DNA of 6,050 nucleotides from an uncultured Gammaproteobacteria bacterium (GCA_964617525.1 CAZTWG010000039.1:1-6050); one strand, 5' to 3'; counted from the stretch's first letter, positions 2,155-4,767 are shown. The notes: generated by a model not told the origin, from the letters alone. A program made the numbers and translations.

Positions 2155-2182
2155 AAGAACAAAAACGTTCTTTAAAAGGAGG
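2155..2182 (+). promoter_or_regulatory. Leader palindrome AAGAAC-N6-GTTCTT followed by Shine-Dalgarno AGGAGG (copy A)
   Basis: AAGAAC (2155-2160) and GTTCTT (2167-2172) are perfect inverted repeats about +4 to +21 from the predicted TSS. AGGAGG lies at 2177-2182, 4 nt before the ATG at 2187. The same elements occur at 3626-3653 and 4436-4463. Confidence 0.6.
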
Positions 2183-2186
2183 AAAA

Positions 2187-2666
2187 ATGTTGACAATACT
2201 TATTAAGTCCGTATTGTCCCTTGTTGCTTATGTTGTTATTATCATTGTTTTTAGGTTAGCCTATCATTTCTTGATTGCAAAAAGACATCTTCCGAGACAG
2301 TCAATGAATATCTGTGGTCCAGAAGGGATTACAGTAGATGTCTCTGGTCTATTCTACGACGGTCATAGAGAAGAGTCTCTTAAGCTCACTAGAGATTTAT
2401 CTACAATTTTCTTTTCTGTAGGTTTCTTCATCTTCGGCATAATTTCTCTTTTTTTAAGGGGAATGAATACGCCAATGATATTGGTTCTGTTTTTCAACTT
2501 TTCGTATTATCTTGGTGCAAGTGCAAGAACAGCGACAGAAGATGCAAAGGATTATCTCTCCTCTTTCATGGGAGAACTAACCCGTCTTGAAGCAATAGGT
2601 AGTATTCTCTTGGCTGTTTTATTTTCAGCAGGGACAACAGCGCTTATTGTCCTTTTATTAGGGTAA
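2187..2666 (+). CDS. Hypothetical integral membrane protein, about 4 TM helices (159 aa)
   Basis: A perfect SD is well placed upstream. Hydrophobic segments lie at about residues 3-29, 73-90, 95-110 and 135-158. A polar loop lies at 30-72 and an amphipathic stretch at 111-134. I recognise no catalytic motif. A strong terminator follows. Confidence 0.75.
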   Translation: MLTILIKSVLSLVAYVVIIIVFRLAYHFLIAKRHLPRQSMNICGPEGITVDVSGLFYDGHREESLKLTRDLSTIFFSVGFFIFGIISLFLRGMNTPMILVLFFNFSYYLGASARTATEDAKDYLSSFMGELTRLEAIGSILLAVLFSAGTTALIVLLLG

Positions 2667-2684
2667 GGTGCAGAAAAAAGTATT

Positions 2685-2718
2685 AGGCTTGATCTTTGTG
2701 TCAAGCCTATTTTTTTTG
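2685..2718 (+). terminator. Rho-independent terminator
   Basis: TAGGCTTGA (2685-2693) pairs with TCAAGCCTA (2702-2710) as a 9-bp perfect stem with an 8-nt loop. A T8 run (2711-2718) follows immediately. Confidence 0.85.
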
Positions 2719-2737
2719 TGATATTATTGGGGATTTT

Positions 2738-2762
2738 ATTTAGGAATCCGATTCCTAAATAG
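2738..2762. promoter_or_regulatory. Perfect 11-bp inverted repeat (TATTTAGGAAT ccg ATTCCTAAATA), candidate operator
   Basis: The arms at 2738-2748 and 2752-2762 are exact reverse complements with a 3-nt spacer. The repeat lies in the 198-bp intergenic region about 100 nt upstream of the Nudix ATG, and no T-run follows it. Confidence 0.45.
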
Positions 2763-2864
2763 TTTAATTTGTGTTTATGATAGAAAAATGTTAAACTAAC
2801 ATTAGTCGGTTTTCTCTGCTTAGTCTTGGGGAGACGGTAATTATAATCAATAAAATAAACAAAA

Positions 2865-3512
2865 ATGAAAGTTAAAAAATTATTAGAATTCATGGAGAAA
2901 AACACTGAGTTTATTCCTAGCTGGAAAGAATATAAAGGAGGCGGTTTGTATAACCCTCATTTTGGTTCAGTAGAGAGAATTGTTGTCTGCGAAGATGATG
3001 ACACTCCTATTTTTGATCAGTATCAGGTTGTAGAAAAGGGGGGGGCAATTGTTGTCCCTTATTATTTTAAAGATAATAATCTAAAGGATGTTTTTATTGG
3101 GCTCAATACATGTATTCGGGCGGTTGTTGCCGATTTAAAGACAGGTGAACAAGGAAACCTAAAGAGCATAGAAGTGCCTAGGGGATTTGGAATTGGTGAT
3201 GAAGAAGATTCTTCTGTAGCTATCAGAGAATTAGGCGAAGAGACACAACATGTAGTCAAAAAGTTAGATTTAATAGGCTACGTTAATGCTAATACAGCCT
3301 ATTTTAAGAATTATGGAATTTCAACATTTGCGGCATTAATTGATACAGATTCTTTGGGCAAATTTACTCCTGACCCAAACGAAAAGATACTTAGTTGTAG
3401 TTTTTATTCTGTAGAAGAAGTTAAAAAAATGTTGAATGATAACAAGATTTTTTGTGGGCTTACTAAATCAGCGCTTTTAGATTTTCTCGTTTTCATCAAA
3501 AGTGATCTGTGA
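2865..3512 (+). CDS. Nudix hydrolase (ADP-ribose pyrophosphatase-like), 215 aa
   Basis: A near-canonical Nudix box G-x5-E-x7-REUxEExGU lies at residues 107-129 (nt 3183-3251). It reads G FGIGD E EDSSVAI RE L G EE T Q H, with only the last G replaced by Q. There is no SD upstream, as for the flanking native genes. Confidence 0.8.
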   Translation: MKVKKLLEFMEKNTEFIPSWKEYKGGGLYNPHFGSVERIVVCEDDDTPIFDQYQVVEKGGAIVVPYYFKDNNLKDVFIGLNTCIRAVVADLKTGEQGNLKSIEVPRGFGIGDEEDSSVAIRELGEETQHVVKKLDLIGYVNANTAYFKNYGISTFAALIDTDSLGKFTPDPNEKILSCSFYSVEEVKKMLNDNKIFCGLTKSALLDFLVFIKSDL

Positions 3513-3523
3513 ATATAAACTAA

Positions 3524-3545
3524 CCTATAACTGACCTATAACTGA
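3524..3545. repeat. Tandem 11-bp direct repeat CCTATAACTGA x2
   Basis: 3524-3534 is identical to 3535-3545. The repeat starts 12 nt after the Nudix stop codon, and the second unit supplies the CTGA of the terminator's left arm. Confidence 0.9.
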
Positions 3546-3567
3546 CCCGACGGGTCAGTTTTTTTTT
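3541..3567 (+). terminator. Rho-independent terminator (5' part of module copy B)
   Basis: CTGACCC (3542-3548) pairs with GGGTCAG (3552-3558) with loop GAC, and A3541/T3559 can extend the stem. A T9 run follows at 3559-3567. Confidence 0.8.
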
Positions 3568-3587
3568 CAGGGAGTCTCCCACGCATA

Positions 3588-3615
3588 TTGACAAATTCTC
3601 CAAATTTGCTATAAT
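3588..3615 (+). promoter_or_regulatory. Consensus sigma70-type promoter with extended -10 (copy B)
   Basis: TTGACA lies at 3588-3593, the spacer is 16 nt, TGc lies at 3607-3609, and TATAAT lies at 3610-3615. The GGGAGTCTCCC palindrome at 3570-3580 lies just upstream. Confidence 0.8.
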
Positions 3616-3657
3616 TTCAATAATTAAGAACAAAAACGTTCTTTAAAAGGAGGAAAA

Positions 3658-4296
3658 ATGAAAATTAACTACGCTAAACGCATTGCTCGATTACAAGAGT
3701 GTCTAGGCATAGACACCGGCATTACCGCTCAGCAGTTCAAGCTGGAGGCCGAACATCTATGGGACGTTATGATTCAAAGGGATCCTAAGATAGTTAGTGA
3801 ATTCAATATAGTGCTTCCAGTGGTTTTACCTAAGCTTGTTACTGGTGACCTTGGTATTGAGTTGCAATTGTATCTAGAAGGAGTTGGCAAAAGCTATGCT
3901 AAAATTACCGATAGAGAGTTCCATAACTATTATGAGAATGAATTAGATGGCAAGGTCAAAATAGTTCCAGGGAGTCATCATAATCAACTCATCAAACGTA
4001 TGAAACAGGGGTCACTTGTCGGCATACATCTTTCAGGTCTTTTGCGTGGCGAATTTGAACCAAGAGAGCAATACTTACTATCTGGCATGGATATTCCTAT
4101 TGTCGTGTTGATGTTTCCCGATCTATTTGGTTGCGACCATAATCAGATTTTGGACATGACTGCTCTCTCGTGGCGAAACGGGAGGGGACTTGCTTTAGCT
4201 AGCTACAAAACAGGCGCAGAGTTTAATATTACTGGCAACTTGCTTTATGCGGGTGTTGCTGATTATGCTCGACCCTCTTACCTATTTTTAGGGTAG
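3658..4296 (+). CDS. Hypothetical soluble protein, 212 aa, no recognisable motif
   Basis: The ORF has a perfect SD (AGGAGG 3648-3653) and its own strong terminator. It has no signal peptide or TM segment. It is noticeably more GC-rich than its neighbours: hand counts give 43% for 3661-3720 and 48% for 3721-3780. Confidence 0.75.
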   Translation: MKINYAKRIARLQECLGIDTGITAQQFKLEAEHLWDVMIQRDPKIVSEFNIVLPVVLPKLVTGDLGIELQLYLEGVGKSYAKITDREFHNYYENELDGKVKIVPGSHHNQLIKRMKQGSLVGIHLSGLLRGEFEPREQYLLSGMDIPIVVLMFPDLFGCDHNQILDMTALSWRNGRGLALASYKTGAEFNITGNLLYAGVADYARPSYLFLG

Positions 4297-4310
4297 GTTT
4301 CTCAATTTAT

Positions 4311-4344
4311 AGGTCTTTCGTATTTGCGAAAGACCTGCTTTTTT
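4311..4344 (+). terminator. Rho-independent terminator
   Basis: AGGTCTTTCG (4311-4320) pairs with CGAAAGACCT (4327-4336) as a 10-bp perfect stem with a 6-nt loop. It is followed by GCTTTTTT (4337-4344). Confidence 0.85.
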
Positions 4345-4347
4345 AAT

Positions 4348-4470
4348 TATAACCAACCCGACGGGTCAGTTTTTTTTCAGGGAGTCTCCCACGCATATTG
4401 ACAAATTCTTCAAATCTGCTATAATTTCAATAATTAAGAACAAAAACGTTCTTTAAAAGGAGGAAAAATG
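4348..4470 (+). repeat. Regulatory module copy C, long form with truncated terminator arm
   Basis: It contains ACCCGACGGGTCAG plus T8 (4356-4377), GGGAGTCTCCC (4380-4390), the promoter, the leader, the SD (4458-4463) and the ATG at 4468. The left arm of the hairpin reads CCAACCC instead of CTGACCC, so only 4 bp can pair. Confidence 0.97.
4398..4425 (+). promoter_or_regulatory. Consensus sigma70-type promoter with extended -10 (copy C)
   Basis: TTGACA lies at 4398-4403, the spacer is 16 nt, TGc lies at 4417-4419, and TATAAT lies at 4420-4425. Confidence 0.8.
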
Positions 4471-4767
4471 AAAAAATTTGTAATAGGTCTACTGGTTTTA
4501 ATCGTCTTGGCTGGTTGCTCTTCCTATAGGGAGATGACTGGAGTAGTTACCTCAGTAGAATACGTCAAAACATCGTCATATGTCTCTCTGTCAGGTGTCA
4601 TCAGAGGCAAAACGATCGTAACCTTTGAAGACGGACGCATAAAAGCCTTCGCTGGCCTTACAGATAAAATTCTCCGGATAGGAGAAACAAACATCATTAA
4701 ATATGATAATGATGATGAAATTTTATCTGTTACAATTGTGTTATTGCCGGAAAAACTTCACGAATAA
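4468..4767 (+). CDS. Small lipoprotein (99-aa precursor, about 82-aa mature), function unknown
   Basis: The signal peptide MKKFVIGLLVLIVLAGC carries the lipobox L-A-G-C (Cys17). A perfect SD lies upstream. The mature part alternates polar and hydrophobic residues (beta-rich look). Hand-counted GC for 4501-4620 is about 43-47%. Confidence 0.8.
   Translation: MKKFVIGLLVLIVLAGCSSYREMTGVVTSVEYVKTSSYVSLSGVIRGKTIVTFEDGRIKAFAGLTDKILRIGETNIIKYDNDDEILSVTIVLLPEKLHE

Follow-up and report, generated by a model that had tools for sequence, protein, structure and literature searches.

Three Shine–Dalgarno-led genes in a Patescibacteria chromosome without SD-led translation: probable accessory cassettes at a variable hot spot

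Three genes in the chromosome of an ultra-small bacterium, a Patescibacteria member of the Parcubacteria type, each carry a textbook Shine–Dalgarno (SD) sequence in a genome that otherwise largely goes without one. We consider it probable, at roughly two chances in three, that these genes are self-contained accessory cassettes inserted at a hot spot and supplied by horizontal exchange within the Patescibacteria gene pool. Each cassette would run from a consensus promoter with an extended -10 element, through a short leader with a hairpin and an optimally spaced canonical SD, to an open reading frame (ORF) and an intrinsic terminator. The textbook SD and the unusual composition of the three genes would then both be explained by their being recently inserted, swappable units in a variable region between two conserved genes. 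The cassettes lie in the window, that is, the whole 6,050-nt stretch of DNA that was analysed. The genome carrying it (G000) is a fragmented MAG of 77 contigs that is 95% complete, and two congeneric genomes (G001 and G002) were used for comparison.

A sequence-only reading of the window had set these genes apart by their translation signal and their base composition, and both observations hold. The motif AAAGGAGG stands at 2175-2182, 3646-3653 and 4456-4463, each time 4 nt before the ATG, while no GGAG, GAGG or AGGA lies within 15 nt of the six other ORF starts, three of which end in atttATG. The GC values counted by hand proved exact for the cargo (43.3 and 48.3% in the two lines of 3661-3780, 46.7 and 43.3% in those of 4501-4620) as well as for the flanking genes (26.7, 21.7, 26.7 and 35.0%); across the ORF that starts at 2187, GC is 30-43%. 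Compared with the 498 G000 ORFs of at least 90 aa, whose GC3 averages 0.255 (sd 0.043), ORF1, ORF2 and ORF3 have a GC3 of 0.319, 0.390 and 0.350, corresponding to percentiles 94, 99 and 97. The log-likelihood of their synonymous codons, a measure of typicality, falls at percentiles 1, 3 and 1. The three genes are found in the tails of the gene-to-gene spread, and native genes across the genome do without AGGAGG. A Nudix ORF located among the cassettes (2865-3512) and five flanking genes are typical in both GC3 and codon use.

The host belongs to an SD-independent lineage with a degenerate anti-SD, as seen from a 16S tail without CCUCCU and from starts without SD enrichment. In G000 an SD precedes only about 3% of genes, which is the background level; SD motifs upstream of starts are no more frequent than in an internal control, and complementarity to the anti-SD is depleted in start regions. 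The 3' end of the host 16S rRNA is CACCUCAUUU instead of CCUCCUU, with a mutated anti-SD (CCUCA), and this type of end is common to most sampled relatives in the order. Within the family, the end GGAUCACCUCAUUU was found in all 17 genomes with a readable 3' end except two, in which the anti-SD motif has been lost, and it recurs in several other families of the order. These tails agree with the published loss of the anti-SD in a subgroup of Parcubacteria (Tsurumaki et al. 2022, RNA 28:1041; PMC9297842), to which the host is similar in lacking CCUCCU and in having core genes without an SD. The subject of that report is the rRNA; it is not known to mention SD-led accessory genes as a minority class or to comment on how they are composed.

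Since the host tail is not canonical, the SD of the cassettes suits a canonical ribosome better than the host's own, with a duplex energy of -11.8 kcal/mol for the canonical tail versus -6.2 for the host tail. An SD adapted to the mutated anti-SD was considered and rejected, as neither UGAGG nor GAGGU is enriched upstream of starts. Similarly, a search for an SD-rich donor within the order returned two relatives with a canonical anti-SD that have an SD before only 9-11% of their genes, so that no such lineage has been identified nearby.

The three SDs do not count as independent events, being part of one promoter-leader-SD module, the copies of which are 97-100% identical over 75 nt; like the other parts of the segment, they lie on the plus strand. 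Module copy A (2117-2186) contains a sigma-70 promoter that matches the consensus at 12/12 positions, with a TG-extended -10 (2117-2144), and a leader hairpin of the form AAGAAC-N6-GTTCTT (2155-2172). Copies B (3568-3657) and C (4378-4467) additionally have an upstream element, CAGGGAGTCTCCCACGCATA in copy B, followed by the promoter (3588-3615 and 4398-4425, respectively) and the hairpin (3626-3643 and 4436-4453). Transcription is predicted to begin some 7 nt downstream of the -10. Promoter and intrinsic terminator are provided separately for every cassette, the terminator being located at 2684-2709 for cassette 1, at 4310-4337 for cassette 2, where a second hairpin follows at 4351-4370, and at 4791-4813 for cassette 3. 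Ahead of copy B lies the terminator hairpin AACTGACCCGACGGGTCAGTT (3540-3560), a member of a genome-wide hairpin family whose core, CCCGACGGGTCAG, has 13 occurrences spread over 8 contigs of G000.

The module promoter is of the lineage's own type and falls into the same family as the promoter of a small RNA that is conserved as part of the order's core. The proposal that cargo and module together evolved in a different genetic background is therefore supported only in part: the cargo is accessory and atypical, and its SD fits a canonical anti-SD, but the promoter that drives it is lineage-typical. The near-identical module copies may have spread within the genome by recombination. Comparable reuse of near-identical promoter-bearing sequence before unrelated genes, with related heads in other genomes, is reportedly known from the putative mobile promoters of prokaryotes described by Nijveen, Matus-Garcia and van Passel. 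In contrast to those, the unit reused here extends through leader, SD and ATG context, and its use is linked with an accessory and compositionally distinct class of genes.

Such a head could also mean that the genes are native and tuned for exceptional expression, their output being maximised by the combination of a consensus promoter with a perfect SD and a special set of codons. The promoter itself fits this idea: it counts among only 9 in the genome that are perfect, and it is related to the one that drives the conserved small RNA. However, the ribosomal-protein genes and EF-Tu carry neither of the two signals: their GC3 (0.19-0.30) and codon scores are typical, and none of them is among the G000 genes with GGAGG before the start. 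The explanation therefore fails for codons and SD, and a codon bias of highly expressed genes was rejected. An SD poorly matched to the host anti-SD, the absence of the genes from sister genomes and the state of ORF2, a truncated gene remnant, speak against it as well. Tuning for expression is thus largely refuted and in our view very unlikely.

The comparison with the congeners shows the insertion directly. A variable segment of 2.8 kb (2069-4877) lies between the conserved metallophosphoesterase and SIMPL genes, in a neighbourhood that also includes TsaB, UppS and RNase J. In G001 the segment is missing, and the equivalents of 24-2068 and 4878-6050 adjoin with about 105 bp between them. At the same locus G002 has different content, namely a variant of the module with an unrelated cargo of 276 aa and, adjacent to the phosphoesterase gene, a Nudix paralogue that is SD-led. 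Neither congener has any of the three focal ORFs at this locus, and ORF1 is absent from G001. With the segment missing in one relative and different in the other, the cargo is therefore accessory and was inserted at a hot spot. The Nudix hydrolase gene of the window (Pfam PF00293), SD-less and host-like in composition, appears to be an older accessory resident; it shares 80% DNA identity with G002 and is absent from G001. The G002 paralogue is SD-led, has a GC3 of 0.41 and sits behind a module-type promoter. This pair of an SD-less, host-like gene and an SD-led, GC-rich paralogue suggests that the SD signal and the composition may decay with residence time.

With atypical composition and codon use, and with absence from close relatives at a conserved locus, the segment has the properties of a genomic islet. 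Small horizontally acquired islets are likewise wedged between conserved genes, compositionally distinct and variable among close relatives. Integron cassettes, on the other hand, usually lack promoters, whereas each cassette here has its own, and the segment does not qualify as an integron array. No recombinase domain was found by Pfam in any window ORF that could represent an integron integrase, nor is there a recombinase among the Pfam families of the genes called in the 18-kb context of the locus. Neither a donor, an integrase, a transposase nor a target-site duplication was detected, with no mobility gene among the window ORFs, so that the mechanism of transfer can only be inferred.

A repeated module in a MAG of this fragmentation could mislead an assembler into a chimera, or contaminating DNA could have been binned into the genome. 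The same gene arrangement is nevertheless present at 99.85% identity in four independent ENA and JGI contigs of up to 23.4 kb, flanked by the core genes ArgRS, L10, L7/L12, RNase J and PPDK. The source metagenomes are ERZ27248307 and JGI 3300021509 and 3300021512. It is therefore not an assembly artefact, and we regard a chimeric or contaminant origin as extremely improbable.

The sequence-only reading had named phages and plasmids as possible sources, and for these the collections searched gave no supporting match. A PHROG search of the cargo returned one weak match, confined to the lipoprotein signal peptide of ORF3 (E=0.002). IMG/VR contained no match for the SD part of the module or for the ORF2 family, and INPHARED and PLSDB contained none for the ORF2 family; a phage or plasmid origin was rejected as unsupported. 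In their organisation, the cassettes are similar to the phage 'morons' of the Hendrix/Juhala concept, which also consist of a single gene equipped with a promoter and a factor-independent terminator and are wedged between conserved genes, unlike their neighbours in composition and variable among close relatives. They differ from morons by their position in the chromosome among housekeeping genes instead of in a prophage, by the lack of phage genes, PHROG families or IMG/VR matches apart from the weak one in ORF3, and by one near-identical promoter-leader-SD head shared among all three units. The cargo would have arrived by exchange within the accessory pool of the Patescibacteria and not from phages, plasmids or other phyla.

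The second cassette preserves a piece of such a history. ORF2 (3658-4296, 212 aa) is a truncated and orphaned homologue of the DGR target (variable) proteins of Patescibacteria, from a family found almost only in Patescibacteria MAGs. Its nine homologues share 42-49% identity and have about 300 aa; relative to them, ORF2 is shorter by about 90 residues at the N-terminus and by an internal deletion. In the homologue loci, the 3' end of the target gene forms VR/TR pairs with adenine-specific mismatches, and both Avd and RT adjoin it. The pairs in six loci span 125-132 nt, with 14-22 of 16-29 mismatches at TR adenines. ORF2, in contrast, has a degenerate VR end (RPSYLFLG instead of YSGGLLFLG). 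A blastn search for the template repeat with 4101-4300 against the whole of G000 returned only the self match, and neither RT (PF00078) nor Avd (PF22296) had a match in this genome, so ORF2 is a relic. Judged by its sequence, it is DGR-derived and corresponds to the 3' two-thirds of a DGR target gene. An AlphaFold2 model of it, in which a C-type-lectin-like fold would be expected to hold the variable region, is of low confidence (mean pLDDT 54.8, below 50 in the C-terminal third). The gene would have been severed from its own leader, N-terminus, template repeat, Avd and RT and then re-headed by the module, which makes the locus a clean example of promoter-leader-RBS reuse that includes the re-heading of a broken DGR target gene.

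The other two cargo genes are ORFans. ORF1 (2187-2666) encodes a predicted membrane protein of 159 aa that matched only itself among 5.8 billion clusters and 1.84 billion representatives, by word-index search and a full HMMER scan, and it has no Pfam or PHROG match. ORF3 (4468-4767) encodes a lipoprotein of 99 aa with an LAGC lipobox and the Pfam family LPAM_1. It likewise found only itself in a word-index search of the protein collection, and 55 genomes from the order, searched in six frames, gave no homologue beyond one marginal match to the signal peptide.

Genome-wide, the cassettes would belong to the small class of genes, about 3%, that are SD-led, GC3-richer and codon-atypical. In G000, 10 of 15 SD-led genes are absent from G001 as compared with 82 of 483 others (Fisher p=4e-5), and the association is retained when the three focal genes are set aside (odds ratio 6.8, p=0.0018). 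The SD-led genes of G000 are GC3-rich and codon-atypical with p about 1e-5. G001 shows the same class, and no orthologue in the other genome was found for 14 of the 19 SD-led genes of G000 and 11 of the 17 of G001. Mostly envelope or surface proteins are encoded by this class, which turns over between congeneric genomes. SD-independent Bacteroidota (e.g. Flavobacterium johnsoniae rpsU) also combine genome-wide avoidance of the SD with a small SD-led set. Their anti-SD is sequestered but otherwise intact, and it is core regulatory genes that have kept an SD, whereas the anti-SD of our host is mutated and its SD-led set is mostly accessory and compositionally atypical.

This class could also be read as a second expression regime: SD-led, GC-richer genes, mostly for surface or variable proteins, would be long-standing natives in which selection keeps SD and composition, for example with the SD as a regulatory handle. 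In that case the signals would be silent on a foreign origin, and presence or absence would only reflect fast turnover of the class. Several observations point this way. The ORF2 family is GC-rich and SD-led and keeps a leader of roughly 85 nt in 19/19 host loci examined. At one DGR locus the target gene has a GC of 0.48 and an SD, while neither its own RT (GC 0.295) nor its Avd (0.313) has an SD and both resemble the host in composition. Two small SD-led, GC3-rich genes retain both features in fast-evolving orthologues of G000 and G001 (31-45% identity), and the lineage has a conserved small RNA that displays a canonical anti-SD. The many SD-led genes without an orthologue in the other congener are difficult to reconcile with such permanence, as are the absence of the focal ORFs from both relatives and the lack of relatives of ORF1 and ORF3 in the collections searched. 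The Nudix family, moreover, has both SD-led, GC-rich and SD-less, host-like members, as amelioration would give. We therefore judge this alternative unlikely, though less so than tuning for expression. The conserved SD-led orthologues, the core gene PNPase, which keeps its SD in both G000 and G001, the contrast of the DGR target with its RT and Avd, and the uniform ORF2-family loci still suggest that SD and GC-richness are maintained across a class of genes, so that they would be more than the fading trace of a donor.

The small RNA of the lineage has about 125 nt, is strongly promoted and exposes the canonical anti-SD sequence (AUCCCUCCUA) in an invariant apical loop; in G000 it is encoded at 13934-14098 of contig C9, on the minus strand. 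It has no match in Rfam even at E<=10 and neither SRP RNA model matches G000 anywhere; an assignment to SRP RNA or another known family was rejected. Among relatives with a non-canonical 16S tail, BLAST detected it in 23 of 25; where the tail is canonical, it did so in 1 of 5. In that one genome, G026, the copy is divergent and its loop unchanged. The pattern may therefore reflect how well BLAST detects the RNA, and a clean anti-correlation with the canonical 16S anti-SD does not hold. As the 16S tail is unable to pair fully with GGAGG, the SD box of the cassettes may be read mainly by this small RNA and not by the ribosome. It would then regulate in trans, for instance by silencing the translation of SD-led genes that were newly acquired. 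This idea is speculative and we hold it to be doubtful. If true, the SD would be kept because it is a regulatory handle, and the small RNA would act on the accessory class while SD-less core genes remain untouched. The question raised is what recognises a canonical SD where ribosomes have lost the matching sequence, and the conserved small RNA, with its anti-SD loop, offers a concrete candidate.

For Patescibacteria with a deficient anti-SD, an SD combined with atypical GC3 and codon use would provide a simple marker that separates a fast-turning accessory pool, including surface proteins, DGR targets and ORFans, from the core. Such a marker would be useful for the annotation of these poorly understood genomes and for the choice of candidate genes in host interaction.

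Contig C39, which is the window in full, belongs to a genome (G000) of 597 kb, 32.9% GC and 77 contigs, which gene content and relatives place in the Patescibacteria (Parcubacteria-type). Its nine ORFs all lie on the forward strand: genes for TsaB, UppS and a metallophosphoesterase, ORF1 (2187-2666), a Nudix hydrolase gene (2865-3512), ORF2 (3658-4296), ORF3 (4468-4767), and the genes for a SIMPL protein and a small membrane protein. The arrangement recurs at 99.85% identity, in core-gene surroundings, in four independent ENA/JGI contigs. Immediately ahead of ORF1, ORF2 and ORF3 stands a module with a TTGACA-16-TATAAT promoter (TG-extended -10), a leader hairpin (AAGAAC-N6-GTTCTT) and the Shine-Dalgarno (SD) sequence AAAGGAGG, in all three cases 4 nt before the ATG as the sequence-only reading had noted. 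No SD-like tetramer lies within 15 nt of the other six starts, three of which end in atttATG. Since the module copies are 97-100% identical across 75 nt, the three SDs represent a single duplicated sequence and not three independent events.

The composition of the cargo also sets it apart, and every GC value counted earlier was exact on recount. Among 498 G000 ORFs of at least 90 aa (mean GC3 0.255, sd 0.043), ORF1, ORF2 and ORF3 have GC3 values of 0.319, 0.390 and 0.350 (percentiles 94, 99 and 97) and fall at percentiles 1, 3 and 1 of codon typicality, a synonymous-codon log-likelihood that amino-acid composition does not affect. Both measures are ordinary for the Nudix gene and for the genes on either flank. 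The dichotomy in SD and composition is correct and statistically sound. Tuning for exceptional expression, proposed as an alternative to foreign origin, fails for both codons and SD, because ribosomal-protein genes and EF-Tu have GC3 values of 0.19-0.30 with typical codon scores and none is among the genes with GGAGG ahead of the start.

Genome-wide analysis revealed a host without SD usage and with a mutated anti-SD. About 3% of genes are SD-led (15/498 ORFs of at least 90 aa; 19/603 of at least 60 aa), and GGAG precedes 2.8% of genes compared with 4.6% at internal control positions. On average, duplexes with the 16S tail have an energy of -1.9 kcal/mol at starts versus -3.7 at internal positions; pairing of this kind is therefore avoided in start regions. 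The 16S 3' end (locus L001, 1488-1530) reads GGAUCACCUCAUUU instead of ...CCUCCUU; the module SD would pair at -11.8 kcal/mol with the canonical tail and at only -6.2 with that of the host, and SD variants matching the mutated tail are not enriched in G000. Among 17 family genomes with a readable 16S 3' end, 15 carry the same change and two have lost the motif altogether. Several further families of the order have it too. Across the order, loci L019-L048 together with L001 document CCUCA in 21 genomes, CCUCU in two, complete loss (GGAUUAUAUUUCA) in two and the canonical motif in five. Even order relatives with a canonical anti-SD have an SD in just 9-11% of genes. Loss of the motif is described for a Parcubacteria subgroup in PMC9297842, the one paper among those found that treats the anti-SD in CPR bacteria; we found none naming both the anti-Shine-Dalgarno sequence and Patescibacteria.

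Comparison with congeneric genomes shows that the cargo is accessory and was inserted. In G001 the phosphoesterase and SIMPL genes are ~105 bp apart; this genome lacks the entire 2069-4877 stretch and has no gene elsewhere for any of the four proteins encoded there. In G002 SIMPL is directly preceded by an orthologous Nudix gene (80% DNA identity), upstream of which a variant of the module (94% identical, 31 nt long, at a contig end) drives an unrelated 276-aa protein at the ORF1 position (L018 43-873 on contig C12); this protein is highly acidic, carries a DEDDEDREDREEREEREE tract and matches neither Pfam nor PHROG. The G002 phosphoesterase gene is neighboured by a second Nudix paralogue (GC3 0.41) that comes with a terminator hairpin, a module-type promoter and an SD; it is 53% identical to the SD-less, host-like Nudix (GC3 0.27). 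Such a pair, though a single example, is the outcome that amelioration would produce.

Several repeats were observed alongside. Near-identical copies of a 20-bp palindrome, AACTGACCCGACGGGTCAGTT, occur at 3540-3560, 4351-4370 and 11 other sites (contigs C1, C3, C5, C12, C13, C20 and C60), repeatedly at gene ends across G000 and also in G002; they resemble a family of REP-like terminator hairpins, which could offer portable homology for cassette exchange. The contig end (5949-6050) is a repeat with the hairpin AAGAACCTGC..GCAGAACCTT, present in dozens of 75-90% identical, partly tandem copies in genomes G002-G005; its copy number is variable, as an independent assembly (L049) carries one more 36-nt unit. 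SRP RNA was unmatched anywhere in the 95%-complete genome with either Rfam model (RF00169, RF01854).

The focal genes are not alone in their signature. Scored against the whole of G001, 10/15 SD-led genes are absent versus 82/483 others (Fisher p=4e-5), an enrichment that persists without the three focal genes (odds ratio 6.8, p=0.0018). GC3 is higher in SD-led genes (0.322 vs 0.253, p=1e-5) and their codon use is atypical (p=3e-5); several appear from their N-terminal sequences to encode envelope proteins. In G001 a separate set of 17 SD-led genes shows this bias too, and 11 of these lack a G000 orthologue. Two small SD-led, GC3-rich genes common to both genomes have kept both features at 31-45% identity. 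Among 405 reciprocal-best-hit orthologues, the sole gene of typical composition with an SD in both congeners encodes a putative PNPase, so named by its N-terminal sequence (701 aa; G000:C1:7685-9823; G001:C2:51489-53624; ATTGGAGG-N7-ATG in both). PNPase autoregulation is known in other bacteria, and the conserved SD may be related to it.

Homology searches were informative for ORF2. No homologue of ORF1 or ORF3 exists in 5.8 billion protein clusters; 1.84 billion representatives likewise hold none for ORF1, and 55 order genomes none for ORF3. ORF2 homologues are rare (19 loci, ~300 aa, 42-49% identity) and come almost only from Patescibacteria MAGs. Downstream of their genes come a conserved non-coding region, in which the 3' end of the gene is repeated as an AAC-rich copy, and after it bAvd and a reverse transcriptase. 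At six loci the variable region and template repeat (125-132 nt) differ almost solely at template adenines, and the family is therefore a target protein of diversity-generating retroelements (DGRs). Downstream of the genes, immediately ahead of the template repeat, there are weak sub-threshold matches to RT-16 (RF03019), at L063 3874-4038 and L059 3911-4056. Compared with its homologues ORF2 is truncated by ~90 residues at the N-terminus and lacks an internal segment, and template repeat, reverse transcriptase and Avd are all absent from G000; ORF2 is a relic, its original leader and N-terminus having given way to the module. All 19 relatives are SD-led and much GC-richer than their flanks (0.40-0.54 vs 0.31-0.42). 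Most share a structured ~85-nt leader between -10 box and SD (L056-L073, ~100 nt 5' of the homologues), with three hairpins (ATTCTTTC..GAAAGAAT, CCTCGGG..GAGG and CGGGC..GCCTG) and no Rfam family match. In one of these DGRs, reverse transcriptase and Avd are AT-rich and SD-less.

The promoter tells a different story from the one proposed for the module. Heads of a related kind (...GTTCTTTAAAAGGAGGAAAAATG) stand before unrelated genes in further genera and families, and 7 of the 11 G000 consensus promoters with an extended -10 drive SD-led ORFs. The module promoter is native to the lineage: its family, TTGACAAATT..AAATCTG.TATAAT, also drives a conserved, structured ~125-nt small RNA (G000:C9:13934-14098, equivalent to L110 1501-1665, minus strand). 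This RNA, without an Rfam match, was found in 28/41 genomes searched, G000 included. It has 42 predicted pairs (28 with compensatory changes) and a long closing rod, and its invariant, unpaired apical loop, AUCCCUCCUA, is the canonical anti-SD sequence. In at least 13/25 genomes it is closely followed by an SD-led gene. BLAST detected it in 23/25 relatives with a non-canonical 16S tail versus 1/5 with a canonical one; this association is only a lead, because the copy in the lone canonical-tail genome is a divergent one that keeps the loop, and because the genomes compared are themselves interrelated. Judged by its loop, the RNA is a possible reader of the cassette SD.

It is right to regard the cargo as accessory and inserted, and as lacking adaptation to its host. 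Its proposed phage or plasmid origin is unsupported, a search for such a link having found none, and the promoter cannot be counted as foreign. The interpretation is also incomplete in that the signature characterises a class of genes throughout the lineage. The ORF2 relatives, their DGRs, the genes shared between congeners and the SD use of relatives together indicate that SD and GC-richness mark a gene class, largely accessory and mobile, in which both features may be actively maintained.
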